Below are positions 6,615 to 51,479 of a stretch of 64,000 nucleotides of DNA, one piece after another. The position numbers and the translations under genes are program-made. Location: assembly GCA_965216915.1 (NCBI GenBank), contig CBDCGS010000011.1, forward strand, positions 1,314,569 through 1,378,568, read 5' to 3'. Every line of letters starts with the position of its first letter. Within the stretch, counting starts at the first letter, position 1. Under the pieces are notes generated by a model. That model worked only from the letters and a program-made list of their open reading frames with translations, searched no databases and was not told the origin of the DNA. This DNA comes from Alphaproteobacteria bacterium. Lineage in GTDB: Bacteria > Pseudomonadota > Alphaproteobacteria > UBA828.

Positions 6615-6637
6615 AGATCGAGAAGGACGCGACCGAC

Positions 6638-8433: not shown

Positions 8434-8468
8434 GCGCGCTCGCTCGACACGCGATCAGGAATTTCGCC

Positions 8469-9833: not shown

Positions 9834-9842
9834 GAGGGCGCG

Positions 9843-10238
9843 ATGAGCCAACGCGACCAGGACAACGTCGATTACTTCCTGACAGAAACCGGCCTCGACT
9901 CCGAGCGCGAGAAGGAGATCGGCCAGCACATCGGCTATCGCTACGACGTCAACCTGCTGCCCGACTACGAGCGCATCACGCCGTTCCTGAAGAGCTACAT
10001 GGAGACCATGGGTTGGTCCGACCTCAATTGGCTGGAAGATGTCCACATGGGCTACGAGGAAGGCCGGCCTGCGGTGTTCGACCGCAACATCAACGGCTGG
10101 GTCACGGTGCCGGAGGACCTGGCGCTTCCCAACAATCAGCAAGACCGGGACATGTTGGCACGTGAGTTGCTAGTGAAATTTCAGATGTCACCGAGCCACC
10201 CCATGGTCGATCTCAACAAGGCCTATCGAAAGTTTTGA
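9843..10238 (+). CDS. Hypothetical protein, 131 aa; candidate DMFase small (alpha) subunit by size and position
   Basis: It has strong RBS AGGAGGG 6 nt upstream of the ATG and begins 10 nt after the stop of the preceding gene. There is no recognisable motif. The call rests on context only. Confidence 0.55.
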   Translation: MSQRDQDNVDYFLTETGLDSEREKEIGQHIGYRYDVNLLPDYERITPFLKSYMETMGWSDLNWLEDVHMGYEEGRPAVFDRNINGWVTVPEDLALPNNQQDRDMLARELLVKFQMSPSHPMVDLNKAYRKF

Positions 10239-10328
10239 CATCCGCGGTCTGCGGTGTTGCGATCGAGCAATCGTGCGACACCGCCAACAATGAAGAGCCG
10301 GAGAACGGTCCCACACAGGGAGGAACAC

Positions 10329-10754
10329 ATGGCAGTTGATATTCCGAACAAGACCGGCATCCAACTCAATCAAGGTCACACGTCGACCGACGACTTCATC
10401 ACGCGAACCTATGTTCTGCCGCTCTTGACCGACGAGGCCACCAAGCAACGCCTCATCGAGGAGCATAAGAACAATCCCATCGGCAAGCCGGGCAAGGCCG
10501 GAAAGGCCGGTGTCGGCCATAGCGACGACCTCATTCGCGTCATCGACAAGCTGCGCCGCGCGCCGATGGCCGGCAAGTACGTCCGCATCTGCCTAAAGCC
10601 GCATGAGGAGTATTGCATCGGCGTCACCTCCGGCAAGCGGGGCGCGCCCGTCGAAATTCTTCGGGACGAGGTCTTCCCGAGCGAGGAAGCGTGCGAGCAC
10701 GGCATCTTCCTGAAGCGGATCGAGGACCTCCTCGCCGCCTACGGCGAGAAATAG
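10329..10754 (+). CDS. Hypothetical small protein, 141 aa; paralog of the ORF at 13266-13628
   Basis: It has RBS AGGGAGGAACAC upstream of the ATG at 10329. It shares the block YVRICLKPHEEYCIGV / ILRDEVFPSEEA with YVVVCTKPEEQWCVGQ / LKLLEDMLFDSPEA in the downstream ORF. Confidence 0.5.
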   Translation: MAVDIPNKTGIQLNQGHTSTDDFITRTYVLPLLTDEATKQRLIEEHKNNPIGKPGKAGKAGVGHSDDLIRVIDKLRRAPMAGKYVRICLKPHEEYCIGVTSGKRGAPVEILRDEVFPSEEACEHGIFLKRIEDLLAAYGEK

Positions 10755-10832
10755 CCGCTACCCGCATTCGCACCGAATTGAGACCGCGCGGGCGTCCGAG
10801 CCGACGCCTCACCGCACGGGAGGGAGAACACG

Positions 10833-27484: not shown

Positions 27485-27885
27485 CCCGTCTCCTTCGTCA
27501 CCTCGTTACCGACTGCCTCCGTACCCAAAGCTGGGCTCGGCACCTCTTGTTGATCCCGTCATGCGGGTGACACGGCAGCCCAGGGTCAGCCGAAAAAAGG
27601 CTAGGCAAAAGCCGAACCTGCCGGTAGCTCCCCGAAGGGGTCTGCCCGAAGTCGTTACCCTAAACGGGTAGGTTTTTTCCGATTGCAGGCGTCCACGCGG
27701 CGCCCCAATCGTTACCAAGCGATCGGTTGACGTAAGGCGGCAATTCGCCGGTCGATCGTTCATCCCAACGTGTGGCGTCGCGTCGTAACTTCGCCGTGCG
27801 TTGGCGACCGAACTGAACTACGATTTCCTGGAATTTGATGCCGTGGCGAGGGAACCGCCCAAACGTGGGGCGCGAGGAGGGGACA

Positions 27886-28323
27886 ATGGTGGTTTGGAGG
27901 CACTCACCGGCGATCACACTGGCTGCCGCGTTTCTGTTGTTTGTGGCGGGGACCCCGGCCATGGCAGGCGGATCGCTGTATGAGCGGCTTGGCGGCATCG
28001 ACGCCATCACGGCCGTGGTCGATAAGTTCACCGCCGACCAACTCGCCGACCCGCGTATCGCCAAGCGCTACACGAACACGGATATCGCTGCGTGGCGTGG
28101 CCACCTCACCGATCTCATCTGCCAGGCGAGTGGTGGACCGTGCGAATATACCGGCCGCGCGATGGAAAAGGCACACGCGCGGCTCTCCATCACCGAGGAC
28201 GAATTCAATTGGACCGCTGAACACCTGGTGGCCGCGTTGAACCACTTCAACGTGCCCCAGGCGGAGCAGGAAGAGCTCGTCACCATCGTTGCGTCCCTGA
28301 AGGACAAGGTGGTGGGGCAATAA
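27886..28323 (+). CDS. Group-I truncated hemoglobin (trHbN-like) with an N-terminal signal-peptide-like hydrophobic segment
   Basis: Globin motifs LYERLGGIDAITAVVDKF...HLVAALNHF. The N-terminus MVVWRHSPAITLAAAFLLFVAGTPAMAGG looks like a Sec signal peptide. The start was trimmed to the ATG at 27886. Confidence 0.7.
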   Translation: MVVWRHSPAITLAAAFLLFVAGTPAMAGGSLYERLGGIDAITAVVDKFTADQLADPRIAKRYTNTDIAAWRGHLTDLICQASGGPCEYTGRAMEKAHARLSITEDEFNWTAEHLVAALNHFNVPQAEQEELVTIVASLKDKVVGQ

Positions 28324-28392: not shown

Positions 28393-28872
28393 CTATCCGA
28401 AGGCAAGCACCGCCAGCACGACGATCGCGACGCCGAGGATGAGCACCGCCATGCCCAATCGCTCGATGACCTTCGTGTCGGGCGCGGCGGTGCCGCGTCT
28501 CATGCGGGCGCTCTGACGGTGGATCAACCCGACAGAGAGCGTCAGCAGCGCGACCAATCCGACCTTGATGTGGAAGAGCACGCCGCCGGCCGCCGCGAGA
28601 CCATCGTAGATTGCGATCAGCGCGATGCCGGTGCCCCAAAGCAAGAGCAGCGACAGGCCACTCAAGAGTCCCGAGACGGACGAGCCGGCGGCCATGACCC
28701 GTGCTCCATCCTCGGTCGGCATGCGCGCTGTGCGGATGCCCAAGCCCGCCATGAAAAAGGAGGTTCCGAGCCCCGCCGCGAGACCCAGAAAGTGCAGAAT
28801 CAACAGAGCCTCGTAAACGACCTTGGGGTGCCTCCTCCAGATCCTCTCCGCGTGTGCGGCCCAGAACACCAT
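28393..28872 (-). CDS. Hypothetical integral membrane protein (4 predicted TM helices)
   Basis: Hydrophobic segments LLILHFLGLAAGLGTSFFMAGL, SGLLSGLSLLLLWGTGIALIAIY, VGLVALLTLSVGLI and GMAVLILGVAIVVLAVLAF. Confidence 0.5.
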   Translation of the reverse strand: MVFWAAHAERIWRRHPKVVYEALLILHFLGLAAGLGTSFFMAGLGIRTARMPTEDGARVMAAGSSVSGLLSGLSLLLLWGTGIALIAIYDGLAAAGGVLFHIKVGLVALLTLSVGLIHRQSARMRRGTAAPDTKVIERLGMAVLILGVAIVVLAVLAFG

Positions 28873-36505: not shown

Positions 36506-38950
36506 CTAGCCTTTCACCCGCTTGCCTGCGGGATCGTAGAACGCACGCAGAGAGGCATCCGCCGGGAAGCGCTCGCAGGCGATCTCGATTTCCCAATCGC
36601 CGCTCTCGACATAATCCTTGGTGATGCCCTCCCCATGGTTGACATAGCCCATGCCGACCGAGGCGCCGAGGGTGAAGCCGTAGGCGCCTGAGCTGATATA
36701 GCCGACGATCTCACCGTCGCGGCGGATGAGCTCCTCGTGGAACAGCACCGGCTCGGCGTCGCGGAGCTTGAACATGACGAGGCGCTTGGGCAGTGGCCCG
36801 GCCTCCCTCTGGCGCGCCAGCGCGTCGTGCCCGATGAAGCCACCCGGCTTGTCGAGCTTGACGGTGAATCCGAGCCCGGCTTCGAGCGGCGTATCCTCGG
36901 GCGTCAGGTCGAGCTCATATTCGCGGTACGCGCGCTCGGAGCGGAGATGTTCGAGCGCATGATAGCCGGCGGGCTTGAGGCCGTTCCCGGCGCCCGCCTC
37001 CATCAGCGCGTCGAACACCCCCCGGGCGAATTCGGTCGGGATATGCAGTTCCCAACCGAGTTCGCCGACATAGGTCAGGCGGTTGAGGATGACGCGGGCA
37101 TAGCCGACGTCGGCCTCTTTCGACGTGGCGAAAGGGAAGGACTCGTTGTCGAGCGCGGTGTCGGTCACCTGCGACAGGATGTCGCGCGCGTTCGGGCCCT
37201 GCAGGGAGAGCACGGCATAGCCCGAGGTCACGTCCGTCAGGGTGACGTTGTCGTCATCCTCGATGTGGCGCTCGATCCATGCCTTGTCGCGCGGGTGAAC
37301 CGTCGCCGAGGAGATGATCAGGTAGCGGTTCTCGGCGAGCCGGTTGACCGTGATGTCGGTTTCGATGCCGCCACGGTTGTTCAGCATGTGGGTGTAGACG
37401 AGCTTGCCGATGGGCACGTCGACATTGCCGGCGCAAAGGCGCTGGAGAAATGACGTGGAGTCTCGGCCCTGGATGAGATGCTTGCCGAAGGAGCTTTGGT
37501 CGAGAAGGATCGCCGTCTCGCGCGCGGCCCGGCACTCCTCGGCCAAAGGCCCGAACCAGTTCGGCCGTGTGTGGGAATAGATGTTTTCGGTGGAGCCGCC
37601 GTCGGGCGCAAACCACATCGGCCGCTCCCAGCCCATGCCCTCGCCGAAGCTCGCGCCGAGCGCGGCCCAACAGTCGTGCAGAACGCTCTTGCGCACGTTG
37701 CGCGAGGTTTCCGGCTGGTAATGCGGCCAATGCGGCTTGTAGTGCAGGCCGACGATCTCCGTGGTGCGATGGTGCAGATAGGTGCGGTTGACCTGGAAGG
37801 GATGATAGCGCGCCACATCGACATGGCTGAGGTCGAGGGTCGGCTCGCCTTCGACGATCCATTCGGCGAGCGCTCGTCCGGCGCCGGGGCCGAACTCGAT
37901 GCCTTCCGAGTTGTAGCCGGCCGAGATGTAGCAATTGGGCAGGCCCGGCGCCTCGCCGAGGGCGAACAGCAGGTCCGGCGTGAAGCTTTCCGGCCCGTTG
38001 AGGAAGGTCTGGATACCGGCATGTTCGAGGTTCGGCAGGATCTCCATCGCCTTCGAAAAGGGCAGCGAAAAATGATCCCAATCCTCGGGCAGTTGGATGA
38101 AGGCGCTGTCGCGGGGCAATTGCTCCATGTGCAAGGGCTTGCCGACCGGCTCGAAGGCGCCGACGAGCCATTTACCGGCGTCTTCTTTGACATAGGTATA
38201 GCCGTCCGTGTCGCGCAGCACCGGGAGGCTGGGCGTGGCGGCGTCGAGCGCCTCGGTCACCACATAGAAGTGCTCGCACGGATAGAGCGGCACGCGCACG
38301 CCGAGCTGCGCTGCGAGATCGCGTGTCCAAAGGCCACAGGCGAGGATCAGCGTCTCGCATTGCACGGTGCCCTCGGCGGTCTCGGCGCGGTATTCACCGG
38401 AGGCGAGGCGCTCCAGCTTGCTCACCGGGCAGTTCTCCACCACTTTGACGCCGTTCTGGCGCGCTCCGGCGATGAGCGACAGGGTCGAATCCACCGGATT
38501 GGTCTGGCCGTCCTTGGGAATGTAGATCGCGCCCTCGATGATGCTCTCGTTCATCGCCGGGTAGATTTCTTTGGCTTCGGCCGGGGTGATGATCTGGGCT
38601 TCGATATCGAAGCTCTTGGCGATCGAGGCGACGCGCTTGGTCTCGAACAGGCGGTCCTTGGTGCGACAAACGCCGAGCGTGCCGTTCTGCTTGAAGCCGG
38701 TCGCCTGGCCGGTCTCCGCCTCGAGGTTGGAGTAGAGTTCGACATTGTAGCGCGCGAGCTCGGTGAGCGCGTGGGTCGAGCGGAGCTGCATGATCAGCCC
38801 GGCCGCGTGCCAAGTCGTGCCCGAGGTGAGCTGGTTGCGCTCGACGAGCAACGTATCGGTGCGGCCGAGCTTGGCGAGATGGTAGGCGGCGCTCGCACCG
38901 GCGACGCCGCCGCCGACGATCAGTGTTCGAATATATGAGGGGAAAGACAT
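36506..38950 (-). CDS. Second dimethylglycine/sarcosine dehydrogenase-family flavoprotein (FAD domain plus GcvT-like domain), 814 aa
   Basis: LIVGGGVAGASAAYHLAKLG Rossmann motif. It is a paralog of the 264-2720 gene, with the same architecture and C-terminal RSERAYREYELDLTPEDTPLEAGLGF block. The start was set at MSFPSY (38950). Confidence 0.85.
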   Translation of the reverse strand: MSFPSYIRTLIVGGGVAGASAAYHLAKLGRTDTLLVERNQLTSGTTWHAAGLIMQLRSTHALTELARYNVELYSNLEAETGQATGFKQNGTLGVCRTKDRLFETKRVASIAKSFDIEAQIITPAEAKEIYPAMNESIIEGAIYIPKDGQTNPVDSTLSLIAGARQNGVKVVENCPVSKLERLASGEYRAETAEGTVQCETLILACGLWTRDLAAQLGVRVPLYPCEHFYVVTEALDAATPSLPVLRDTDGYTYVKEDAGKWLVGAFEPVGKPLHMEQLPRDSAFIQLPEDWDHFSLPFSKAMEILPNLEHAGIQTFLNGPESFTPDLLFALGEAPGLPNCYISAGYNSEGIEFGPGAGRALAEWIVEGEPTLDLSHVDVARYHPFQVNRTYLHHRTTEIVGLHYKPHWPHYQPETSRNVRKSVLHDCWAALGASFGEGMGWERPMWFAPDGGSTENIYSHTRPNWFGPLAEECRAARETAILLDQSSFGKHLIQGRDSTSFLQRLCAGNVDVPIGKLVYTHMLNNRGGIETDITVNRLAENRYLIISSATVHPRDKAWIERHIEDDDNVTLTDVTSGYAVLSLQGPNARDILSQVTDTALDNESFPFATSKEADVGYARVILNRLTYVGELGWELHIPTEFARGVFDALMEAGAGNGLKPAGYHALEHLRSERAYREYELDLTPEDTPLEAGLGFTVKLDKPGGFIGHDALARQREAGPLPKRLVMFKLRDAEPVLFHEELIRRDGEIVGYISSGAYGFTLGASVGMGYVNHGEGITKDYVESGDWEIEIACERFPADASLRAFYDPAGKRVKG

Positions 38951-39334
38951 TCGACCGGCGGCCCCTCTTTGTATTGTCCGCAAGCGCTCGAGACCCCGCC
39001 CGGTTTCTCCGGGCTGGCTCGACTAAGCCAACAACTGATCGAACGACCGAACGATGTCAATGCCACGTTGCCGGTGGCGCAGTTTGTCGGTGCGATCTGG
39101 CGGCGAGGCCGACATCGCTGCCGTGACCGTCACGATGACGACCGGAAAAATTAGCCGGTGAGGATGATGCCGCGATGGCGGTGCTGGTTCTCGCGAGCCC
39201 TGTGCGCACGCCATCACGAGCGAATTTTCAGAAGCCGTCGATTGGTCGAGCGCCGTTGATCCTGATCAATGTGCGCCGGCTCGGCCGGTCTACCGTGACC
39301 TATCCCGAGTCAGCGTTTTGACACGCAGGAGGTT

Positions 39335-42300
39335 GTGATGTCGGAGGGGAGTGTCGGTCGGACAAGAATCACGAGAAGGACGTTCCTGTCACAACTGGCC
39401 GCCGCTGGGGCGGGGGCCGCCCTCATCTCCAAGCAAGCTGGCGCGTCGACGCGTTTGCTCGAGCCCCTGGAAATCGCGAACCCGCTGTCGGGTTATCCCA
39501 ACCGAGATTGGGAAAAGGTCTACCGCGACCTTTATAACAGCGACTCTTCGTTCACCTTCCTCTGCGCGCCAAACGACACGCACAATTGCCTGATGCGCGG
39601 CTTCGTCAAGAACGGCGTTGTGACCCGCATCGCACCGACCTACGGTTTCCACAAAGCGACCGACCTCGATGGAAACCGGGCGAGCCAGCGCTGGGATCCG
39701 CGCTGCTGCCAAAAAGGCTTGGCGCTCGTGCGCCGGTTCTACGGTGACCGCCGGTGCAAGCGGCCGCTCGTGCGCCGCGGTTTCTTGGAATGGGTGGAGG
39801 CAGGCTTTCCGCGCGACGCCGAGACCGGTGCGGTCGATCCCAAATACACCCAACGTGGCAAGGACCCGCTGTTGCCGATCAGCTGGGACGAGGCCTTCGA
39901 ACTCAGCGCCAAAGCGCTCGTCAACATCACGCGCACCTACTCCGGCACGGAGGGCAGTGCGCGGCTCAGCGCGCAGGGCTACGACCCCGCGATGGTCGCA
40001 GCCACCGGCGACGCCGGGACTCAGGTGCTCAAGTTTCGCGGCGGGATGCCGCCGCTCGGCATGACGCGGGTGTTTGCCCAATACCGCATGGCCAACGGCA
40101 TGGCGCTGCTCGACGACAAATTGCGCGGCACCGGCCCCGAGAAGGCCATCGGCGCCCGCGGGTGGGACAATTATAGCTGGCACACCGATCTGCCGCCCGG
40201 ACATCCCATGGTGACCGGTCAGCAGACGGTCGACTTCGATCTTTGCAACGTCGAGCACGCCAATCTCGTGCTCGTTTGGGGCATGAACTGGATCACCACC
40301 AAGATGCCCGACGCGCACTGGATGACCGAGGCGCGTATGAAGGGCACCAAGATCGTGGTGATCGCGGCTGAGTACAGCGCGACCGCGAACAAAGGTGACG
40401 AGGTCATCATCGTGCGCCCCGGCACCACACCGGCTCTCGCGCTCGGCATCGCGCAGGTGATCATCGAAGAAGGCCTCTATGACGCCGACTACGTCAAAGC
40501 CAACACCGACCTGCCGATGCTCGTGCGCCTCGACACCGGCGAGCGCTTGCGGGCGGACGAGGTGTTCGACAGCCACCAGCTCGCCGCGCTGAAGAACAAC
40601 ACCGTGGTGCTGGCCAAAGGCGAGAAAGGCCCGCCCATCCACAAGCAGCCAGGTCCGGTCATGAGCGCAGCGCAGCGTGAGACCTGGGGCGACGCCGTGC
40701 TGTGGGACACCAACACCGGCGGCCCAGTCGCGATCAATCGCGATGCTGTGGGCAGCCATTTCGCGCCACTCGGCATCGATCCGGCGCTCGAGGGGACTTT
40801 CGAGGTCACGTTGGTCTCGGGCGAGCGCGTCGGGTGCCGCACCGTGTTTGACGTCACGCGCGAGGTCCTGGACGGAAGCTACCGGCCGGCGGATGTCGAA
40901 AAGCTGACCTGGGCTCCGGCAGACGCGGTTCGCGGCCTCGCCCGCCAGATCGCGAAGAGCATGGACAAGACCCTCTTCGTGATGGGAATGGGACCGAACC
41001 AGTTCTTCAACAACGACCTCAAGGATCGCGCGGTCTTCCTCGTCGCGGCGCTAACGCGCAATGTCGGGAAGATTGGCGGCAATGTCGGGAGTTATGCCGG
41101 CAACTACCGGGCGAGCTTCTTCAACGGATTGCCGCAATATATCGGCGAGGACCCCTTCGATATCGAGCTCGACCCCAGCAAGCCGGCGCGCCCGCGCATG
41201 CGCTGGAAACCCGAGAGCGTTCACTATTTCAACCATGGCGAGAAGATCCTCCGCGTCGGTAAGGCGATGCTCACCGGCAAGTCGCACATCCCGACACCGA
41301 CGAAGTCGATCATGGTGAGCAATTCAAACTCGCTCATCGGCAACGCGAAGGGCCACTACGACACGGTCGTCAATGTGCTGCCCAAGGTTGAGTTCATCGC
41401 CATTAGCGAGTGGTGGTGGACGGCGAGCTGCGAGTATTCCGACATCATCTTCCCGGTCGATAGCTGGGCCGAGTTCGCCTACCCGGACATGTCGATCAGC
41501 GTGACCAACCCGTTTCTCTACGTGTTTCCGACCACACCATTGTCACGCATGCACGACACCCGCTCCGACATGGAGGTGGCCGAAGGCGTCGCGCGGGCGA
41601 TCGGACGCATCACAGGCGATCCCCGGCATGAGGACTATTGGCGGTTCGTGCGCGAGGGGAATGCGCGGCCCTACATTCAGCGCATTCTCGATCATTCCAA
41701 TGCGACGCGGGGCTACAGGATCGAGGATTTGGAGCGCGAGGCGGAAGATGGTGTGCCGGCGATCCTGCAGACCCGAACCTATCCCAAGGTCGGTGCATGG
41801 GAGCAGGGGAATGAAAGCAAGCCCTGGTACACCAAGACCGGGCGGCTCGAATTCTATCGCGACGAGCCGGAATTCATGGACAGCGGCGAAAATATCGTCG
41901 TGCACCGCGAGCCCGTGGATTCCACCTTCTACGAGCCCAACGTCATTGTCGCCAAACCGCACCCTCTGATTCGCCCGAAAGCGCCGGCCGACTACGGCCT
42001 CGCCCAAGACGACGTCTCCGGCGAGGCGCGCCAGGCGCGTCACGTGCTGCGCTCGGTGGATGAGGTGCTGGCCTCCGAGCATCCGCTCACCAAGGATGGC
42101 TATCACTTCATCTTCCACACCCCGAAATACCGCCATGGCGCGCACACCATGGGTGTGGACACCGACATCGTGGCACTTTGGTTCGGCCCGTTCGGCACCA
42201 TGCACCGCAACGACAAGCGCATGCCTTTCATCACGGAGGCGTTCGTCGACATCAACCCGCTGGACGCGCAGGAGATGGGGATCGATGACGGCGACTACAT

Positions 42301-42823
42301 CTATGTCGATGCCGACCCCCACGACCGTCCGTTCTACGGCTGGCAAAGCAAGCCGGACGACTACAAGGTCGCGCGGCTGCTCATCCGGGCCCGCTACTAT
42401 CCGGGCACGCCGCGCGGCGTCACACGGGTTTGGCACAACATGTACGGCGCCACCTACAGCTCCGTGGCGGGGCAAGAGACGAACGGCACAGGCCTCGCCA
42501 AGTCTCCCGAGACGGGGTACCAGGCGCTGTTTCGTCGCGGCAGCCATCAAAGCTGCACCCGCGGCTGGCTCAAGCCGACCTGGATGACGGATACCCTGAC
42601 GGTCAAGGGGCTGCTCGGACAGAAGATCACCAAGGGCTTCGTGCCGGACGTTCATTGCCCGACCGGGGCGCCGCGCGAATCCTATGTCCGTATCACGCGA
42701 GCGGAAGCCGGGGGCATCGACGGCGTGGCGCCCTGGAAGCCGGCTCGGCTCGGACTCCGACCGACTTACGAAAACGAACTCCTGAAGAGCTTCATCGCCG
42801 GACGTTTCGTGAACCGCGTCTGA
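39335..42823 (+). CDS. Molybdopterin oxidoreductase catalytic alpha subunit, type-II DMSO-reductase family (NarG/EbdA/DdhA-like), Tat-exported, 1162 aa
   Basis: Twin-arginine motif [18 protein letters not shown]. An N-terminal FS0-like region ([11 protein letters not shown]...x38...RCCQKG) is followed by molybdopterin-binding domains. The start is GTG at 39335 or ATG at 39338, after CAGGAGG. Confidence 0.85.
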
Positions 42824-42870
42824 TCGGCGGCGGCCGGTCGGAAACCAGTCCCTTTGGACAGGAGGAAAGA

Positions 42871-43998
42871 ATGGCCAAGCGGCAGAATTGGCAGATCGGG
42901 CGAGACATCGACTACCCCTACGAGGGCCCGCCTCCGCAAAAGCAAGTCGCCTATATCTTCGACACGAACAAGTGCATCGCGTGCCAGACCTGTACGGTGG
43001 CCTGCAAGACCTGTTGGACCAGCGGCAAAGGCCAGGAGACGGTCTTTTGGAACAATGTCGAGAGCAAGCCATATGGCGGCTACCCGACGGGTTGGGACAT
43101 CAAGCTGCTGGATAAGCTCGGGCCGGCCGAATGGTCCGGCGATGTGCTCGCGAGCAGAACGCCGTTCGACGGCCTGGATGATTTCGAGCAGCCGCGGGGC
43201 TACCGGCCGGATGCCGACGACTATGGCCAGCCCAACCTGGGCGAGGACGAGATCACCGGCACGCTCGACAAAGGCGCTCATTTCGAGGGCGTGCATCCGA
43301 TGTGGATGTTCTATCTCGCCCGCATCTGCAACCATTGCAGCAATCCCGCCTGCCTCGCCGCTTGCCCGCGCAAGGCGATCTACAAGCGGGATGAAGACGG
43401 GATCGTGCTGGTCGACCAGGAGCGCTGCCGCGGTTACCAGGAGTGTGTGCGCGCTTGCCCTTACAAGAAGGTGTTCTACAACCTGGTCAGCCGGATCTCG
43501 GAGAAATGCATCGGGTGCTTCCCGCGCGTAGAGCAGGGCGAGGTCGCGCTCTGCGTCGAATCGTGCATCGGCAAGATTCGTTTTCACGGGTTCCTGTCCA
43601 CTCAGGAGGCGCCACGCGACGACAACCCGCTGGATTACATCGTCAAGATTCGCAAGCTCGCGTTGCCGCTCTATCCGCAGTTCGGCACGGCGCCGAACGT
43701 CTATTACATTCCACCACTCCACGTGCCGAACGGCTTCCTGGAGCAGGTCTTTGGGACCGGTGTTGAAGCCGCCAAGGAAGTCTATCGCAACCTCAAGGAC
43801 GACCCACAGCTGCTCGGCGCGCTTCTGCTTTTCGGCGCCAGCAACCGTATCATCATGCGCTACGAGGTGCGGGGCGAAGAGGTCGTGGGCTGGGATGTGG
43901 ATGGCACCGAGGTCGCACGCGTGCCGTTTACGGAGCCGACCTACATCCGCGAACACTACGACGCCAAGTTTGACGCCTACCGGCACAACACGACTTGA
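42871..43998 (+). CDS. Iron-sulfur beta subunit (NarH/EbdB-like, four-cluster ferredoxin) of the type-II molybdoenzyme
   Basis: RBS AGGAGGAAAG. Cys clusters CIACQTCTVACK..., CNHCSNPACLAACP..., CRGYQECVRACP, CIGCFPRVEQG...CVESC. Confidence 0.85.
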   Translation: MAKRQNWQIGRDIDYPYEGPPPQKQVAYIFDTNKCIACQTCTVACKTCWTSGKGQETVFWNNVESKPYGGYPTGWDIKLLDKLGPAEWSGDVLASRTPFDGLDDFEQPRGYRPDADDYGQPNLGEDEITGTLDKGAHFEGVHPMWMFYLARICNHCSNPACLAACPRKAIYKRDEDGIVLVDQERCRGYQECVRACPYKKVFYNLVSRISEKCIGCFPRVEQGEVALCVESCIGKIRFHGFLSTQEAPRDDNPLDYIVKIRKLALPLYPQFGTAPNVYYIPPLHVPNGFLEQVFGTGVEAAKEVYRNLKDDPQLLGALLLFGASNRIIMRYEVRGEEVVGWDVDGTEVARVPFTEPTYIREHYDAKFDAYRHNTT

Positions 43999-44012
43999 GC
44001 GGAGGAGCCAAC

Positions 44013-44951
44013 ATGAAACCGTTTGCTCGTTTGATCCTGGTGGCGGGCTGCCTGGCCGGCGCAGCGAACACATCGGGGCTCGCCGCTGGCGAACCCTCGG
44101 CGAGCTGGCCGGCCGCGGGCGTCGCGGCCTTGCCCGAGGTCGCGGTGGTTGCCGCCGAGGAGCTGGTCGTGGTCAAGATCGACCATGCGCTCCTGAGCGA
44201 GGACCCCTATTCGGTCGATTGGTGGGTGGCGCCGTATGTCGAGGTCGAGATTGACGCCCAGCAAATGGCGCGGCCTGCGCTCGACGAGGCATCGGTCGGC
44301 ACACTTCGCGTCCAGGGCCTCACAGACGGAACCTACATCGCATGGCGGGTCTCCTGGCGCGACACGACGCCCGATGGCAACGTCGACGTCAGCCGCTTCA
44401 CGGATGGCGTTGCGGTCGAATTTCCGTTGGATCCGGACGCGCTGCCGATGATGGGCGACGAAGAGTCGAAGGTGCAGATCCTCTACTGGAAGGCGTTGTG
44501 GCAGAAGGATATCGACGTCGGGTTTCAGGATGTCCAGGACGTGCATCCGAATTTCTGGACCGATCTCTACTGGTTCGCGGAGGGAGAATTCCCCTATCCG
44601 GTTCCGACGGCCTTTGAGAACCCGGTGGCGATGCAGTGGTTCGTCGCGCATCAAGCGGGCAACCCGATGGCGGCTTTCTCACGCCGTCAGCCCGTCCAAG
44701 AGCTCGTGGCGAAGGGGTGGAGCACGCTGACGATCCAGCCTTATTCGGTGACCACCTCACGCGGCACTTGGGTGCGCGACAGTTGGGCTGTCGTGTTCCG
44801 CCGCCCGATGATCACCGACGACCCGCTCGACTATCAGTTTGCCGCGGGCATGGCAGGGCAGATCGCCTTCGCGGTGTGGGACGGCGCGTCGAACAATGTC
44901 GGGGGCCGCAAGCACTGGTCGGACTGGGTGGATTTTCGAATCGAGGAGTGA
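44013..44951 (+). CDS. Heme-b gamma subunit (EbdC/DdhC/SerC-like 'ethylbenzene-dehydrogenase-related' domain) with Sec signal peptide
   Basis: RBS GGAGGAG before the ATG at 44013. Signal peptide MKPFARLILVAGCLAGAANTSGLAAG. Its position after the alpha and beta genes is typical of type-II enzymes. Confidence 0.7.
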   Translation: MKPFARLILVAGCLAGAANTSGLAAGEPSASWPAAGVAALPEVAVVAAEELVVVKIDHALLSEDPYSVDWWVAPYVEVEIDAQQMARPALDEASVGTLRVQGLTDGTYIAWRVSWRDTTPDGNVDVSRFTDGVAVEFPLDPDALPMMGDEESKVQILYWKALWQKDIDVGFQDVQDVHPNFWTDLYWFAEGEFPYPVPTAFENPVAMQWFVAHQAGNPMAAFSRRQPVQELVAKGWSTLTIQPYSVTTSRGTWVRDSWAVVFRRPMITDDPLDYQFAAGMAGQIAFAVWDGASNNVGGRKHWSDWVDFRIEE

Positions 44952-44954
44952 GCC

Positions 44955-45668
44955 ATGGCTTCGACGCCTCTCCAGCTGCTCGCGCAGGCCGACCTGTTGC
45001 TATTCGTTGCGGATGGCTTTCGCGAGCCCAACGATGCCTTGCGTGACGGTTTTTCCGAAACGGCCTCGGCGCTTCCGGCACTCATCGAACGCGCGGGGGC
45101 CGGCCGCGCCGTCGAAGCGTCGTTCGAGGAGGCTCGTGCCGCGCTCGATGCTCTCGACGTGGCGCGCTGGCGCGAGGAGTTCACTTATCTGTTCGAAGGC
45201 GGTGTCGAATGCCCCATCAACGAGGCGGGCTTCGTGCGGCGCGACAAAGGCGCGATCCTCGGCGATATCGCCGGTTTCTACCGTGCCTTCGGGTTCCGTC
45301 TCACTGATGACTGCAACGAGCGCGTCGACCATCTCGTCTGCGAACTGGAATTCACGGCCATGCTGCTCGTCTTGTGGGCGCAAGCCGAGACGGGTGGGGA
45401 GAGGGCGCACGCCGAGATCAGCCGCGACGCGCTCGACGCCTTCACCTACGCGCATTTGGGCGAATGGTTACCCGCTTTCTGCGAGCGGTTGGAGGAAGTG
45501 ACCGCTCTTCCGTACTATTGTCATCTTGCGCGCTTGCTGGCTGTCGCGTGGGCGCACGTTTGCCAGCAGAACGCGCTGGCGGTGCCGGCCGAGCCGAACC
45601 TGTCGGACCCCGGAGAGGACGAGGGCACGCCGTACGAATGCGGTCTCGCAGACGCCGGAATCGCCTGA
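44955..45668 (+). CDS. TorD/NarJ/DdhD-family redox-enzyme maturation chaperone (delta)
   Basis: 237-aa acidic helical protein. Its position and size match the delta chaperones of type-II molybdoenzyme operons. Confidence 0.65.
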   Translation: MASTPLQLLAQADLLLFVADGFREPNDALRDGFSETASALPALIERAGAGRAVEASFEEARAALDALDVARWREEFTYLFEGGVECPINEAGFVRRDKGAILGDIAGFYRAFGFRLTDDCNERVDHLVCELEFTAMLLVLWAQAETGGERAHAEISRDALDAFTYAHLGEWLPAFCERLEEVTALPYYCHLARLLAVAWAHVCQQNALAVPAEPNLSDPGEDEGTPYECGLADAGIA

Positions 45669-45803
45669 GGCGGCTTCACCGCCTGCGCAAGGCCCCGGCG
45701 TTCGCCCCACGAGGTCTCCGACGCGGCGCGCCTTGGCACACGCGATCCCAAACGGAGGGACAAACGCCGGGAAGCAGTCAGCGCGGGAGCTGGGGGGATA
45801 ACC

Positions 45804-46586
45804 ATGAGACTAGAAGACAAGACCGCACTCGTCACAGGGGCGACGGCTGGTATTGGGGAAGCTTGTGCGAAGCTATTTGCGGCGGAAGGCGCGCGCGTGT
45901 TGTTCACCGGGCGCGATGTGCCCCGGGGCAATGCTGTGCTCGAAGCGATTACAGACGCCGGAGGGACGGCCGAATTCGTAACGGCGGATCTGCGGGAGAG
46001 CGGCGCGTGCGACCGACTTGTCGAGGAAACCGTAGAGCGGCTGGGTCGCATAGACGTTCTCGTCAACAACGCTGGCATCCTCTATTCGGCCCCAGCCGCT
46101 GAAACGACGGACGAGCAATGGGAGGACACCTTTGCTGTCAACGTGACCGCCGTTTTCCAATTGGCACGTGCCGCGCTGAGAAAGATGATTGCGCAGGGTG
46201 GCGGTTCAATCGTCAACATTGCGTCCGAGTCGGGGTTAAACGGCGAGCCGGGCCTTACTGCTTATTGCGCCAGCAAAGGCGCGGTCATTCAAATGACCAA
46301 ATGCATGGCGCTGGATCATATCGGCGACAACGTGCGGATTAACTCGGTCTGCCCAGGTGAAACGATGACCAAAATGATCGACGACTGGCTTCAGTCTCTG
46401 CCGGGCAATATCGAGGACAATATCGACGCTCTAGCCAAGGTCCTCCCGATCAAACGTTTGGCGCGACCCGAGGAAGTCGCCAACGCCGCGCTTTTCCTCG
46501 CGTCCGATGAAGCAAGCTATTGTGTCGGCACAAATCTCTCAGTTGATGGCGGCACCGCCGCGACCGGCGGGCCCTATCCGGTATGA
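45804..46586 (+). CDS. SDR-family oxidoreductase (candidate secondary-alcohol dehydrogenase of the pathway)
   Basis: TALVTGATAGIGEA, NNAG, catalytic YCASKGAV. It immediately follows the molybdoenzyme operon, analogous to ped after ebdABCD. Confidence 0.85.
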   Translation: MRLEDKTALVTGATAGIGEACAKLFAAEGARVLFTGRDVPRGNAVLEAITDAGGTAEFVTADLRESGACDRLVEETVERLGRIDVLVNNAGILYSAPAAETTDEQWEDTFAVNVTAVFQLARAALRKMIAQGGGSIVNIASESGLNGEPGLTAYCASKGAVIQMTKCMALDHIGDNVRINSVCPGETMTKMIDDWLQSLPGNIEDNIDALAKVLPIKRLARPEEVANAALFLASDEASYCVGTNLSVDGGTAATGGPYPV

Positions 46587-46835
46587 CACACTAGCTCGCG
46601 CCGCCTCTTCGGCCTTCCACGTGGCGAAAGGGGTACGATCACGCTGGGGGACGCCGGCAACTCGCGCGGCGTTTGTAGGGCGATGAGGTGCAGCAGTTCG
46701 AGCCTGCCGTGTACCATTGTCGGTGGCGGGTCGAGATGAAATTTCATCCAACGGATCGTCCTGACGAAGTGTTCTTGTGCGGTTCGGGCAATCGTGCCCC
46801 ACCCTGGAGCACTCCGATTGGAGGCTGACACAGCG

Positions 46836-48860
46836 ATGTGGCGAGTAGGAATCGATGTCGGGGGCACGTTCACGGATCTGTACGCGCTCGACGAGCAGCG
46901 AAATAGGAGTGTCAGCTCGAAGGTACTAACCGTCCGGCATGACAGGGCCATCGGCGTGTTCAACGCGTTGAGGGCCGCAAGCATAGCGCCCGGGGAGGTC
47001 GAAACACTTGTGCACGGCAGCACAACGGCGACCAACGCGCTCGTGGAGCGGAACTATCCGCCGGCGGCCATGATCACGACAGAGGGTTTCAGAGACGTCA
47101 TCGAAATCGGGCGCCAGAGGCGCAAGGACCTCTTCGACCTGCACCAACAACGCCCAGAACCGCTTATTCGGCGCCGGTATCGTTTCACGGTGTCGGGTCG
47201 CATGGGTTCTGATGGCGGCGAGCTCGAGCCGTTGGATGATCGCGGTGCGGTTGTCCTCGCGAGGCAGTTGAAGGCGATGGGAATCACGTCAGTCGCGGTC
47301 TGCTTCATCAATGCCTACGCGAACCCGTCGCACGAGCGGCGTGTGCGGGACATCCTGAGAGATGAGCATCCGAACTGCTTCGTGGCGCTTTCCTCGGACA
47401 CGGTAAGCAAGTTTCGCGAGCACGGCCGCTTCACGACCACGACGATCCGCGCCGTGCTGTTGCCAGTCATGTCTGACTATTACGATCGCCTGCATTCGAG
47501 CCTCGTTGACAACGGCTTCACGGGAAATCTTCTCATATTGAAAAGCAATGGCGGCATGATGGGAGTGGATCTTGCGCGTGAACGCCCGGAAGAAACCGTC
47601 GAGTCAGGTCCCGCCGGCGGTGTCGGCTATGCACGCTTCCTAAGTGCGAAATCGGAATTCCCGCGGATCATATCGACCGATATGGGCGGCACGACGTTTG
47701 ATGCGTCCATTATCGAGGATGGCGAAGGATTGATAACGCACGACTACGAGCTCGATTGGGAAATGCCGATCATCATTCCGATGCTCGATATTCGCAGCGT
47801 TGGGGCCGGCGGTGGCTCGATTGCCTGGGTCGACGACGGTGGATCGCTGCGGGTCGGTCCACGGAGTGCTGGTTCGGAACCGGGGCCCGTGTGCTATGGC
47901 GGCGGTGGAACCGAGCCCACGGTGACAGATGCGAACTTGGTTCTCGGCCGCCTGGAACCCACTCTCGGCGGAAAATTCGAGCTAGACGAGGACGCAGCGC
48001 AAGCTGCGATCGCTGCGGTGGGTGAGCAGGTCCAATTGGGCCCGCTGGAAACGGCCCAAGCGATCATAGAGATCTGCTGCGAGAACATGGCGCAAGCGAT
48101 CAAACTGGTCCTCGTCGATCGTGGTCGCGACCCTCGCGATTATGCGATTGCAAGCTTTGGTGGGGCCGGGCCGATGCACGCTGCCTTCATTGCCCGGGCA
48201 ATGAACATACCGAAGGTCGTCGTGCCGGCCAACGCTGGTGTCGCCTCGGCGTTTGGTGCTATCACAATGGAATTGCGGCACGACTTGGAGGACTTTTACT
48301 ATGGGGACGTCGCAACCGCAGATCTCGATCGCCTAAGTACCTTGTATGACGCTTTGGAAGCGCGCGGTCGGGATCTGCTCGCAAGAGATGGTGTGGCCCC
48401 CGAAGATATGCGTCTCCAGAGAAATGCCCAGATGCGCTATGTCGGTCAATTCTGGGAAGTTCTTACGCCGATCCCCTCGGGGTCTTTGAACCGCGAGTCG
48501 GTCGCACGGATCTCGGAGGCCTTCCACCAGGCGCACGAAACCGAGCACGGGGTGTGCTCGCCCGAGTTCCAGGTGGAATTTGTGAGCATTGGTCTGACGG
48601 CCACGGGTCGATCCAGGGGACAGCAGCAGATCGTCGAGCAACGAACCGCCGCTGCGGCTCAAGCTAGCCGCCGGCAGGTCTATTTCGACGGTACCTGGTT
48701 TGACACCTCAGTGCTCGACGGAAACGCATTGGGTGCGGACGAGATCGTCAATGGGCCAGCGATCATTGAGTACCCACACTCAGTGACGGTTCTTCCCCCT
48801 CATTCCAGCGCGTCGGTTGACCGGCTGGCGAACCTCATCATCGAGGCTCGAAAGCCTTGA
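46836..48860 (+). CDS. Hydantoinase/oxoprolinase/acetone-carboxylase-family protein, HyuA-type (ATP-binding) subunit
   Basis: N-terminal MWRVGIDVGGTFTDL actin-like ATPase motif of the HyuA family; 674 aa. RBS GGAGG. The region has lower GC. Confidence 0.85.
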   Translation: MWRVGIDVGGTFTDLYALDEQRNRSVSSKVLTVRHDRAIGVFNALRAASIAPGEVETLVHGSTTATNALVERNYPPAAMITTEGFRDVIEIGRQRRKDLFDLHQQRPEPLIRRRYRFTVSGRMGSDGGELEPLDDRGAVVLARQLKAMGITSVAVCFINAYANPSHERRVRDILRDEHPNCFVALSSDTVSKFREHGRFTTTTIRAVLLPVMSDYYDRLHSSLVDNGFTGNLLILKSNGGMMGVDLARERPEETVESGPAGGVGYARFLSAKSEFPRIISTDMGGTTFDASIIEDGEGLITHDYELDWEMPIIIPMLDIRSVGAGGGSIAWVDDGGSLRVGPRSAGSEPGPVCYGGGGTEPTVTDANLVLGRLEPTLGGKFELDEDAAQAAIAAVGEQVQLGPLETAQAIIEICCENMAQAIKLVLVDRGRDPRDYAIASFGGAGPMHAAFIARAMNIPKVVVPANAGVASAFGAITMELRHDLEDFYYGDVATADLDRLSTLYDALEARGRDLLARDGVAPEDMRLQRNAQMRYVGQFWEVLTPIPSGSLNRESVARISEAFHQAHETEHGVCSPEFQVEFVSIGLTATGRSRGQQQIVEQRTAAAAQASRRQVYFDGTWFDTSVLDGNALGADEIVNGPAIIEYPHSVTVLPPHSSASVDRLANLIIEARKP

Positions 48861-48886
48861 TCCAAAGCAGGAGGAGCAACGCGGAT

Positions 48887-50671
48887 ATGACCGAGAGTGG
48901 CAATCCCAAAAGCGGAACCCGCGAACTGGATCCGGTCACATTCGAGGTGCTCCGCAATCAATTCGAATTTTGCTGCGACCGAATGTCCAAGGTGCTCTAC
49001 AAAACGGCGTTTTCGCCGATCCTTAGTGACATTCTCGATTTTTCGAACGCGGTCTACGATAGCGAGATTCGGTTGCTCGCTCAGTCGCCGGGCTGCCCAA
49101 TCCACATGGCGGCAATGCACTTCGCGGCGCGGGCATCGGTCGAGCGGTATGGGATCGAGAATCTCGCGGCGGGCGATGTCGTGATCCTGAACGATCCGTT
49201 CGCCGGTGGCACGCACATCCCCGATACAACGTTCATGATGCCGATCTACGCCGGCTCGGAGCTACTTGGGTTCGCGGTTAGTCGTGGCCATTGGCAGGAT
49301 CTCGGCGGTGGTGCTGCTGGTGGTCAATCATTTGGAACCCATATCGCGGGCGAGGGCCTGCGTATCCCGCCACTCAAGCTTTTCAATGAGTACGAGATCA
49401 ACAAGGATCTCGTATCACTCATTAAAAATAACACGCGGTGTCCGCAATATATCGAGGGAGATATTCAGGCGCACATGGCTGCCTTGAAGGTTGCCGAACA
49501 GGAATATCTTCGCGCGGTCGATCGGTATGGTTTGGACACGGTGAAAACGGCGATGCGGGAATTGATCGCCTATACAAACCGAATAACAAGGAGGCGCATC
49601 GCAAACGTCGCAGATGGCGAATACGAGGTTGAGGATTTCGTCGATACTGACGGGTTCAGCGATAAACCGATCAAACTCAAGGTCAAAGCGACCATCAACG
49701 ACGAGCATATCACGATCGATTTTACCGGTTCCGATCCGCAATGCATCGGCGCGATTAACTCGCCGTTGGCAAACACCTACTCGTCCGTGTACCTCGCGCT
49801 GAGATTTTTTCTGTGTCCAGACGCGCCGGCCAACGCCGGCCTCTTCGACGCCGTCGATATCATTCTACCCGACGACTGTTGGCTGAACGCCAAATGGCCG
49901 GCTCCAACAATCGGCTGTACGACGGTCACCGCAGCGAAAATCAATAGCGCAATTTGGTTCGCGATGGGGCAAGCCATGCCCGAGCATGCAATTGGCGGGA
50001 CGATGTCCGATTGCAATTGGCTCGTTTGCTCTGTCAAGACCCCAGGGTCGAGCGAACAGGCGGTGTTCTCGGACTTGCCGGCGGGTGGCTGGGGTGGAAT
50101 GCGCGACCACGACGGCGTTAGTGTTTACTACGATCCGACTGGAAATTGCATGAACCTCTCGGCAGAGGTCGCCGAGCTTTGCTATCCAGTCGTCTACGAA
50201 ATGTTCGAAATGCGGACGGATTCGGCTGGCGCAGGCCTCCATCGCGGCGGGATGGGCGCCAGCCTGCAGTTTCGTTTCAAAGGTTCGGCCGAGCTGAGTA
50301 TCGAAACATCGCGGACGATAGAAGGGAGTCCCGGTGTCGAAGGCGGTCTCGCCAGCCCTGTGCAAAAACTTTTCAAGGTAGATGGAGACGGGACGAGCGA
50401 GGTTATCGGTGGTTGGTGCGAGGATGGTTCGTGGAAAAACCCTCTTCTCGCGGCATACCGTTTCCAGGCCGGCGAAGCCTTTCGCATCGATACAACTGGC
50501 GGGGGCGGTTGGGGAGATCCGAAGCAGAGACCAAAAGAGCGCGTCAGGGAAGACGTGCTCGATGGATATGTTTCCATCGAAGCGGCGCGTGAAATCTACG
50601 GTGTCGAGTTAAACGAAAGTGGCATAACACCCGAACAGCCGCCACCGCCACCGGGAGCCGCGTCAGATTAG
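48887..50671 (+). CDS. Hydantoinase/oxoprolinase/acetone-carboxylase-family protein, HyuB-type subunit
   Basis: 594 aa with the HyuB-like pattern (DPVTFEVLRNQF...). RBS AGGAGGAG. The start overlaps or abuts the HyuA stop, which suggests coupling. Confidence 0.85.
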   Translation: MTESGNPKSGTRELDPVTFEVLRNQFEFCCDRMSKVLYKTAFSPILSDILDFSNAVYDSEIRLLAQSPGCPIHMAAMHFAARASVERYGIENLAAGDVVILNDPFAGGTHIPDTTFMMPIYAGSELLGFAVSRGHWQDLGGGAAGGQSFGTHIAGEGLRIPPLKLFNEYEINKDLVSLIKNNTRCPQYIEGDIQAHMAALKVAEQEYLRAVDRYGLDTVKTAMRELIAYTNRITRRRIANVADGEYEVEDFVDTDGFSDKPIKLKVKATINDEHITIDFTGSDPQCIGAINSPLANTYSSVYLALRFFLCPDAPANAGLFDAVDIILPDDCWLNAKWPAPTIGCTTVTAAKINSAIWFAMGQAMPEHAIGGTMSDCNWLVCSVKTPGSSEQAVFSDLPAGGWGGMRDHDGVSVYYDPTGNCMNLSAEVAELCYPVVYEMFEMRTDSAGAGLHRGGMGASLQFRFKGSAELSIETSRTIEGSPGVEGGLASPVQKLFKVDGDGTSEVIGGWCEDGSWKNPLLAAYRFQAGEAFRIDTTGGGGWGDPKQRPKERVREDVLDGYVSIEAAREIYGVELNESGITPEQPPPPPGAASD

Positions 50672-50714
50672 GAGACAACTGTCCGGCCCGCCAACGACAC
50701 CGAAAGGAGCTGAA

Positions 50715-51479
50715 GTGACAGGAAAACTAGAATCCAAAGTCGCGCTCGTGACCGGTGGTTCCCGCGGAATGGGTCGGTCGTACAGCGAGCGGTTCGGTGC
50801 CGAAGGCGCGGCAGTGGCGGTCATTTATCGGTCTGACTCTGACGCGGCGCACCAAGTCGTCGACGCTATACAAAAGACGGGTGGCCAGGCTGTCGCGATC
50901 CAATGTGACGTGTCGAACGTTGACGCCATCCACCGTATGGTCAGCGAGGTATGCAAGCACTTCGGCGGAGTCGACATTCTCGTCAACAACGCCGGCATTT
51001 ATCTTTTCACACCGGTTGAGACGACGACCGAGGAAATCTGGGATCAACAGATCAACACCAACCTCAAGAGCGCATTTTTCTGTGCCCAGGCCGTCGTCCC
51101 GGCAATGAAAAAGCGAGGCGGCGGCAAGATCATCAACATTTCCTCGATATTCGGACAGAGTGGATTTGCCGGATCGGCCGCCTACTGCGCGACAAAGGCC
51201 GGAATGTCTCTGTTGACCAAGACGCTTTGCCTAGAACTTCGCGAGGCGAATATTCAGGTCAATCAGATTTCGCCTGGCTGCATCAAGACCGATATGAACG
51301 AGGCATATCGAGCCGAGAATGACGATTACAATGCTGCGCTCCAGAACCACTTCGGTGTTGGTGATCCTTGGCTCGACCCCGACGAGCTGACCGGCGCTGC
51401 CGTTTTCCTCGCATCGTCTGATTTGAACTCTGTGACAGGTGCAAACATCAATGTCGACCGTGGTTATGCCGCGGGGTGA
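50715..51479 (+). CDS. SDR-family oxidoreductase
   Basis: VALVTGGSRGMGRS, NNAG, YCATKAG. GTG start after AGGAG. Confidence 0.8.
   Translation: MTGKLESKVALVTGGSRGMGRSYSERFGAEGAAVAVIYRSDSDAAHQVVDAIQKTGGQAVAIQCDVSNVDAIHRMVSEVCKHFGGVDILVNNAGIYLFTPVETTTEEIWDQQINTNLKSAFFCAQAVVPAMKKRGGGKIINISSIFGQSGFAGSAAYCATKAGMSLLTKTLCLELREANIQVNQISPGCIKTDMNEAYRAENDDYNAALQNHFGVGDPWLDPDELTGAAVFLASSDLNSVTGANINVDRGYAAG

Follow-up and report, generated by a model that had tools for sequence, protein, structure and literature searches.

Results

A putative nitrate/nitrite oxidoreductase operon

We analysed a stretch of 64,000 nt from contig CBDCGS010000011.1 (hereafter the window; GC ~0.63-0.66), in which four closely packed genes on the + strand, as read from the list of open reading frames (ORFs) and their translations, encode alpha, beta, gamma and delta components of a molybdenum-dependent oxidoreductase. 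Our data suggest, with reasonable rather than high confidence, that this operon specifies a soluble periplasmic nitrate/nitrite oxidoreductase of the type formed by nitrite oxidoreductase (NXR) and periplasmic nitrate reductase (pNAR), and that the enzyme is probably run as a nitrate reductase. The initial annotation had described the locus as a type-II dimethyl sulfoxide reductase-family periplasmic alpha-beta-gamma-delta operon, and this description holds, as all four ORFs lie where it placed them and their Pfam families agree (alpha, Molybdopterin PF00384, 2.9e-22; beta, Fer4_11, 2.8e-31; gamma, EB_dh PF09459, 1.7e-20; delta, Nitrate_red_del PF02613, 4.1e-16). The genes are the following.

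39338..42823, + strand: alpha, NxrA/pNarG-like, the predicted catalytic subunit with molybdenum bis(molybdopterin guanine dinucleotide) (Mo-bisMGD) and the FS0 cluster, exported by twin-arginine translocation (Tat); match to PDB 7B04_B, PF00384 and a ribosome-binding site (RBS)
42871..43998, + strand: beta, NxrB/NarH-like, 375 aa; match to 7B04_A, Fer4_11 and RBS GGAGG before the ATG
44013..44951, + strand: gamma, NxrC/EbdC-like, 312 aa; match to 7B04_C and PF09459
44955..45668, + strand: delta, NarJ/TorD-family assembly chaperone, 237 aa, start ATG 44955; PF02613

The likeliest start of alpha is ATG 39338 (1161 aa), 5 nt past an AGGAGG at 39327-39332, the mechanical ORF beginning at GTG 39335 (1162 aa). 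The mechanical beta ORF (42430-43998, 522 aa) is overlong, and the RBS sets the start of the 375-aa protein at ATG 42871; for gamma (mechanical ORF 43995-44951), ATG 44013 is most likely, again from its RBS. The delta chaperone stands outside the mature enzyme.

Full-length alignment of alpha with NXR-A

The best solved match of alpha is NXR-A of Kuenenia stuttgartiensis (PDB 7B04_B; E 1.6e-273, 913 bits), with which residues 11-1159 align in one stretch (NXR-A residues 2-1144 of 1148), with no large unaligned segment to the C-terminus. Other solved matches are far weaker (PcrA, 4YDD, second best at 2.4e-51 and 178 bits; NarG, ~1e-39; EbdA, 2.7e-39), and the fold of alpha may be taken as fixed by the 913-bit match to a solved structure. 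The following features of alpha were located.

39374..39448, + strand: Tat signal region, with RRTFL at residues 14-18, a hydrophobic stretch and ...QAGA/S near residue 38, read from the translation
39563..39589, + strand: FS0 motif C77-A-P-N80-D81-T-H-N-C85 (CAPNDTHNC, residues 77-85), column for column with Kuenenia C67, N70, D71 and C75
39707..39709, + strand: C125, predicted fourth FS0 ligand, the second Cys of RCCQKG (residues 123-128), aligned with Kuenenia C115 (R-M-C-L-K-G)
40187..40189, + strand: D285, predicted Mo-coordinating Asp of the Y-x4-D motif YSWHTD, aligned with Kuenenia D275 (WHGD)

The Tat leader of alpha aligns with that of Kuenenia NXR-A, and its cleavage site is a putative one. 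In Kuenenia NXR-A (1148 aa), the FS0 ligands are C67, D71, C75 and C115, a 3Cys/1Asp arrangement (Chicano et al. 2021, PMC8387239); N70, which is Ile in EbdA, is the proposed substrate-coordinating residue, and D275 ligates the molybdenum (PMC8387239). By alignment, C77, D81, C85 and C125 are the predicted ligands of FS0, N80 is the predicted substrate-coordinating Asn and D285 the predicted ligand of Mo. All of these residues are invariant in 120/120 close homologues and in Kuenenia NXR-A, and the D285 column is invariant in 122/122 sequences.

The initial annotation had thus read the register correctly in placing an Asp at an FS0 ligand position: CAPNDTHNC at 77-85 and RCCQKG at 123-128 were both recovered, and D81 aligns with Kuenenia D71. 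Of the two findings that it had named as refuting its reading, one was made: the ligands are not the canonical HxxxCxxxC, but the protein does sit in a recognised lineage beside a characterised enzyme. The motif is no anomaly, however, as had been proposed, since 3Cys/1Asp is the published state of Kuenenia NXR-A and is constant among the close homologues; it is atypical only by comparison with the Ebd, Ddh, Ser, Clr and Pcr enzymes. The substrate, which had been regarded as unpredictable from the sequence, appears usefully predictable, as the nitrate/nitrite-coordinating Asn is kept as N80 in an end-to-end homologue of NXR-A.

A third expectation concerned size, alpha having been described as unusual in being ~200-250 aa longer than subunits of the EbdA, DdhA and SerA types. 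The difference in length is real, with ~206 extra residues in at least nine short insertions relative to six shorter type-II alphas from the representative search. Because these insertions are common to Kuenenia NXR-A wherever its reconstructed partial sequence covers them, and because the two proteins align end to end, we regard the extra length as a lineage character of NXR-type alphas, that is, as the rule in the NXR lineage and not as an oddity.

Profile models gave a concordant placement. The type-II subfamily models TIGR03479/03478/03477/03482 scored alpha at 313/985, beta at 283/481, gamma at 126/170 and delta at 67/152 bits, and the window proteins therefore appear related to, yet outside, the modelled Ser/Clr/Ddh/Ebd/Pcr subfamily. 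Scores for narG (157/1084 bits) and narH (203/524 bits) were also below their equivalog cut-offs, as were those for EbdA, EbdB, EbdC and EbdD (147/2000, 235/740, 67.5/400 and 43/360 bits). At the FS0 site itself, alpha has Cys77 and Asn80, not the His-x3-Cys-x3-Cys and hydrophobic residue of an EbdA-like enzyme.

The beta and gamma subunits

The best solved match of beta is NXR-B (PDB 7B04_A, E 3.9e-101), with which its N-terminus aligns from residue 5; no signal peptide was seen in beta, which is presumably co-exported with alpha. Its Cys residues fall into four groups, CIACQTCTVAC, CNHCSNPACLAACP, CRGYQECVRACP (three Cys, in the pattern C-x2-Y-x2-C-x3-C-P) and CIGCF...CVESC, from which, by homology, we infer three [4Fe-4S] clusters and one [3Fe-4S] cluster.

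Gamma matches both NXR-C (PDB 7B04_C, E 1.6e-21) and EbdC (2IVF_C, E 4.9e-13), and combines a Sec-type signal at its N-terminus with an EB_dh haem-b domain; transmembrane helices are absent. In Kuenenia, the haem b of NXR-C is ligated by Met155 and Lys305 (PMC8387239); Met147 (nt 44451-44453) and Lys300 (nt 44910-44912) of gamma align with these two residues and are its predicted haem b ligands. The signal peptide of gamma, MKPFARLILVAGC (window 44013-44090), also holds a lipobox-like VAGC, and this copy might be lipid-anchored. We considered a lipoprotein anchor as a feature of the gamma family and rejected it, as a VAGC-like motif occurs in only 9/68 homologues; several planctomycete gamma copies have an N-terminal transmembrane-like helix instead of a lipobox.

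Phylogenetic placement and carriers

Full-length homology to NXR-A, the 3Cys/1Asp FS0 site, the substrate Asn with the Mo Asp and the export and haem pattern all point to membership in the periplasmic NXR/pNAR superclade. Within it, alpha falls outside the canonical clade of nitrite-oxidising bacteria (NOB) and anammox bacteria and in a sister clade: it is 40% identical to Kuenenia NXR-A, against the ~60% or more expected of that clade, whereas a Nitrospira/Nitrospina-like representative (P0125) is 59% identical to the Kuenenia protein. Chicano et al. give identities of ~60% within the anammox/NOB group and of ~40% for the Nitrotoga and Hydrogenobaculum enzymes (PMC8387239). In a neighbour-joining tree of 749 shared columns, with references drawn from 50%-identity representatives that are mostly proteins without a name or from metagenome-assembled genomes (MAGs), alpha groups with branches from Beggiatoa, Planctomycetota, Myxococcales, Alphaproteobacteria, Gaiellaceae and SAR202, and this assemblage is sister to a clade of Kuenenia, Nitrospira-like and Tectomicrobia sequences. 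The pattern C-x2-N-D-x3-C is common to both sister clades, and the Asp position holds a Cys in distant type-II enzymes (Thermincola, Halorussus, Ammonifex and others).

A search with alpha gave 2503 homologous proteins at E<=1e-50, the close ones being 58-86% identical, and at least 589 confirmed matches among GTDB species-representative genomes. Carriers include Thioploca, Parabeggiatoa, Thiomargarita, many Planctomycetota, Phycisphaerae, Myxococcota, Bacteroidota and Alphaproteobacteria/Rhodospirillaceae; Novipirellula sp. SH528 and Stieleria sedimenti are cultured carriers among the Planctomycetota. Earlier papers have treated this lineage as a putative nitrate reductase or NXR, and the window operon adds an alphaproteobacterial example. 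Mussmann et al. (2007, PMC1951784) gave this description of the Beggiatoa copy, Suarez et al. (2023, PMC10732223) called the planctomycete copies a putative novel NXR, and protein OQY53866.1 of Beggiatoa sp. 4572_84 figures in Chicano et al. 2021 (PMC8387239). One related locus (L005) comes from a MAG that bears the isolate name of Beggiatoa sp. 4572_84; its alpha shows 75% identity to that of the window and, going by the isolate name, is presumably OQY53866.1 itself.

Two related loci call for separate mention. The closest homologue (L001, CAYVIG010000029.1; 86% alpha identity) lies on a 17-kb contig of GC 0.54 that was binned as 'uncultured Dehalococcoidia'; as its relatives are of proteobacterial type, the contig may have been misbinned, or the cassette may be a recent transfer. 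In a Rhodospirillaceae MAG (L033:9959-13429), the alpha homologue is split into two consecutive ORFs (446 and 695 aa); the gene may be frameshifted or a pseudogene, or the assembly may be faulty.

Gene neighbourhoods of related cassettes

We compared the gene context of 80 related loci. Most of them have the genes in the order alpha-beta-gamma-delta, with delta as the fourth gene; the exceptions are partial contigs and a few rearrangements. None of the 80 has homologues of the window genes upstream (a dimethylglycine-dehydrogenase-like gene and a glutathione S-transferase) or downstream beside the cassette, and the sole trace of the window neighbours is one weak match to a short-chain dehydrogenase/reductase (SDR) ~9 kb upstream of alpha in L053. 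The closest proteobacterial relatives have unrelated housekeeping genes around the cassette (dienelactone hydrolase, folD, argG, thioredoxin and tldD). The cassette thus behaves, as far as gene order can tell, as a self-contained, horizontally mobile four-gene unit.

Other genes do recur beside it, their functions having been read off representative sequences with a Pfam check on some only. Rrf2/NsrR-like regulators lie directly upstream in 29 loci, small c-type cytochromes occur in 13 loci and membrane-bound ones in 16, alternative complex III (ACIII) genes actABC in 12-15 loci, molybdenum cofactor (Moco) biosynthesis genes in 8-17 loci and CRP/FNR regulators in 6 loci; hemerythrin/ScdA-like proteins are found as well. 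Rrf2, ACIII (actA/B/C-like), cytochrome c and Moco genes flank the cassette in L009, L018-L042 and others, many of them planctomycete. This recurrent neighbourhood fits a nitrogen-oxide respiratory enzyme, not a hydrocarbon pathway, and the flanking ACIII and cytochrome c genes suggest the electron-transfer partners of the lineage.

A perfect FNR-type palindrome upstream of alpha

A candidate regulatory site precedes the operon.

39256..39269, no strand assigned: FNR/FixK/Dnr-type palindrome TTGATCCTGATCAA, centred ~73-76 bp upstream of the alpha start codon

This site is a perfect TTGAT-N4-ATCAA palindrome, which we take to be the consensus of FNR/FixK/Dnr-type regulators, and is the sole exact match in the window, where 0.04 would be expected by chance. 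A box with at most one mismatch occurs within 450 bp upstream of alpha in 10/74 related loci; the background gives 0.036 boxes per 480 bp. The loci that bear it are almost all proteobacterial, and include the nearest relatives L001 (FNR-like box at -82) and L050, Thioploca, Thiomargarita and a Rhodospirillaceae MAG. The box points to induction of the operon at low oxygen.

The host and the remaining window genes

By the gene content of the window and the relatives of its LptD, the host appears to be an uncultured heterotrophic alphaproteobacterium that uses methylated amines. The window encodes two DAO+GCV_T proteins (818-825 aa, dimethylglycine/sarcosine dehydrogenase-like), gamma-glutamylmethylamide synthetase-like and N-methylglutamate synthase-like genes, ABC transporters, an RND pump, LptF/G and LptD. 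The best homologues of the window LptD are only 50-60% identical, and those that are named come from Alphaproteobacteria or Rhodospirillaceae MAGs. Neither alpha, from either of its possible starts, nor beta had an exact match in the protein collection searched. Methylated-amine catabolism genes are dense at 264-13190 and 36506-38983, where glutamine-synthetase-like and GATase/GXGXG/Glu_synthase genes (N-methylglutamate pathway-like), a GntR regulator and a 785-aa N,N-dimethylformamidase beta-like protein are found. A truncated (bacterial-like) globin gene and a divergently oriented gene for a UPF0093-family membrane protein lie at 27835-28323 and 28393-28872, ~11 kb upstream of the operon; the globin could relate to NO or oxygen handling.

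Discussion

The window operon can be compared with several known systems. Like Kuenenia NXR-ABC (7B04), it shows homology over the full length of alpha, beta and gamma, an alpha of 1161 aa (1148 aa in Kuenenia) with a Tat leader, a 3Cys/1Asp FS0 site, the substrate Asn, the Mo Asp, a soluble EB_dh gamma with a Met/Lys haem b and a TorD/NarJ-like chaperone. It differs in the ~40% identity of alpha, its position in a sister lineage, its heterotrophic alphaproteobacterial host and the FNR-type box upstream, and its cassette numbers four genes, against a cluster of 15 in Kuenenia (PMC8387239). With the Beggiatoa-type and planctomycete copies it shares an alpha that is 67-76% identical to those of Thioploca, Parabeggiatoa, Thiomargarita and Planctomycetota, an identical CAPNDTHNC and the same alpha-beta-gamma-delta order; the planctomycete loci have Rrf2 regulators and ACIII/cytochrome c genes that the window locus lacks, and the host of the latter is alphaproteobacterial. 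The EbdABCD, Ser, Clr, Ddh and Pcr systems have a similar subunit architecture, with Tat export, a gamma EB_dh domain with Met/Lys haem b and a chaperone, but in EbdA the FS0 ligands are His/3Cys and the substrate-Asn position holds Ile (PMC8387239), and type-II alphas are ~200 residues shorter. NarGHI and the Nitrobacter-type NXR have a Mo-bisMGD Asp ligand, a NarH-like beta, a NarJ-like chaperone and nitrate/nitrite chemistry in common with the window operon, yet they face the cytoplasm, whereas the Tat leader of the window alpha predicts a periplasm-facing enzyme. NarG uses His at FS0 and NarI is a dihaem membrane subunit, while gamma is a soluble EB_dh protein. The cytoplasmic NarGHI/Nitrobacter-type and the Kuenenia-type enzymes are ~20% identical (PMC8387239).

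We propose a model whereby, by homology, apo-alpha would be held in the cytoplasm by the chaperone until Mo-bisMGD and FS0 have been inserted, the folded alpha-beta dimer would be exported by Tat via the RRTFL leader, and gamma would be exported by Sec and bind one haem b via Met147 and Lys300. In the periplasm, nitrate or nitrite would bind Mo, held by D285, opposite N80, and the site would interconvert both. The electron path would run through Mo, FS0 (C77/D81/C85/C125), the four beta clusters and a high-potential haem b in gamma, which would exchange electrons with a periplasmic c-type cytochrome and hence with bc1 or ACIII. The operon would be induced when oxygen is scarce, and its product would serve as a periplasmic nitrate reductase that depends on cytochrome c. 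Kuenenia NXR is bidirectional (PMC8387239), and the chemistry here is probably reversible by analogy with it; what the sequences show directly is the homology, the ligand residues, the structure of the operon, the regulatory box and the conserved context, while the substrate, the electron partners and the direction are those that we infer from these comparisons.

Nitrate reduction is favoured as the physiological direction because of the FNR box, the heterotrophic host, the prominent nitrate-respiring carriers and the NsrR/ACIII contexts. In the literature, the wider-clade periplasmic relatives include the characterised Hydrogenobacter nitrate reductase and the nitrate-reducing Thermogutta; the paper on Thermogutta, which gives no enzyme data, regards the enzyme of that organism as NarGHI. 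Sister clades of periplasmic NXR hold both true NXR (Nitrotoga) and periplasmic nitrate reductases (Hydrogenobacter) (Kitzinger et al. 2018). Several points weigh against this direction. Genuine nitrite oxidation is known from Nitrotoga, which lies in a related sister clade (Kitzinger et al. 2018), and NXR was favoured for the planctomycete copies (Suarez et al. 2023, PMC10732223). The lineage is without a purified or genetically tested member in the literature, which for the copies of large sulfur bacteria gave genome-based speculation only, and substrate and direction rest on homology and regulation. Our tree lacks Nitrotoga and Hydrogenobacter, and Kuenenia (a partial sequence rebuilt from the PDB alignment) is its sole characterised anchor. 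The genes beside the operon in the window include none for a cytochrome c, for bc1/ACIII, for a nitrite reductase or for a nitrate transporter. Finally, an FNR box also fits a microaerobic nitrite-oxidising or nitrite-detoxifying enzyme.

The most serious alternative, although we consider it rather unlikely, is a true NXR, which would take electrons from nitrite in the periplasm and feed them, by way of the haem b of gamma and cytochrome c, into a high-affinity terminal oxidase, for supplementary energy or for nitrite detoxification at low oxygen. The nearest solved and characterised relative does oxidise nitrite, but the window alpha has only ~40% identity to canonical NXR. NXR has the 3Cys/1Asp FS0 site and the high-potential haem with Met/Lys ligands as well, Nitrotoga shows that sister-clade enzymes can oxidise nitrite, and a truncated globin gene lies ~11 kb upstream of the operon; FNR-type control and the NsrR/ACIII contexts, however, are more typical of anaerobic respiration, and the host looks like an organoheterotroph that degrades methylated amines. 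Nitrite oxidation by the Beggiatoa and Planctomycetota copies was the subject of speculation by Mussmann et al. (2007) and Suarez et al. (2023), yet nitrate-storing, nitrate-respiring large sulfur bacteria are prominent carriers. A broader version, in which the enzyme of the whole Beggiatoa/Planctomycetota/Alphaproteobacteria lineage (at least 589 species genomes) is a physiological nitrite oxidoreductase in organisms not counted as nitrifiers, seems to us somewhat more doubtful still.

Reduction of another oxyanion in the periplasm, such as chlorate, perchlorate or selenate, is improbable in our view. Type-II members with the same layout do reduce these three compounds, and PcrA (4YDD) is the second-best solved match of alpha (E 2.4e-51), but at 178 bits against 913 for NXR-A. 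The Asn of P-N-(C/D)-T also occurs in the shorter non-NXR type-II representatives of our alignment and alone is not nitrate-specific. Neither the window nor the set of recurrent neighbours showed a gene for chlorite dismutase or a similar accessory protein, however, and it is regulators of the nitrogen-oxide type that recur beside the cassette.

The genes downstream of delta had led the initial annotation to suggest oxygen-independent hydroxylation of a C-H bond. A block on the same strand at 45804-51479 encodes an SDR, the hydantoinase-family proteins HyuA (688 aa) and HyuB (604 aa) and a second SDR, separated from delta by a gap of 135 bp (45669-45803) in which a simple scan found no terminator, so that read-through is possible. 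On such a reading, an EbdA/C25DH-like hydroxylase would form an alcohol, to be oxidised by the SDR and then carboxylated by the hydantoinase-family enzyme in the style of Ebd-Ped-Apc, and the gene order (Mo-enzyme, SDR, hydantoinase A/B, SDR) is compatible with this. The Hyu subunits do match acetophenone carboxylase models weakly (ApcC 4.3e-85, far under the cut-off), but they score better on caprolactamase models (CapA/CapB, 2.1e-141/1.6e-89), all of these matches being below cut-off, and the further Apc subunits are absent. The block has a GC of 0.57-0.60, against ~0.64 around it, and fails the filter on GC at third codon positions that the operon passes; the block may have come in by horizontal transfer, as an ATP-dependent module that converts a lactam or a ketone. 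Because none of the 80 loci has SDR1, HyuA, HyuB or SDR2 homologues beside the cassette and the closest relatives lie among unrelated housekeeping genes, we reject a functional link between the block and the operon, and with Asn80 in place of the Ile of EbdA, Cys/Asp rather than His/Cys FS0 ligands and 147 bits on an EbdA model with a cut-off of 2000, a C-H hydroxylase is very improbable.

The large alpha subunit and its Asp-containing FS0 site are textbook features of periplasmic NXR and not the sign of a new hydrocarbon-oxidising enzyme. The cassette is very widespread, known so far from sequence, and the window provides a further example, in an uncultured heterotrophic alphaproteobacterium. 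The perfect box found here and the similar boxes of proteobacterial relatives hint that these copies are low-oxygen respiratory enzymes, and the existence of cultured carriers makes the question tractable. Whether the role is nitrate-reducing or nitrite-oxidising affects how 'nxr/narG' reads in metagenomes are to be interpreted. If the lineage were to act as a nitrite oxidoreductase, such heterotrophs would add hidden low-oxygen nitrite oxidation, and thus nitrate production, in marine and sediment systems, and the FNR box would tie this activity to micro-oxic niches.

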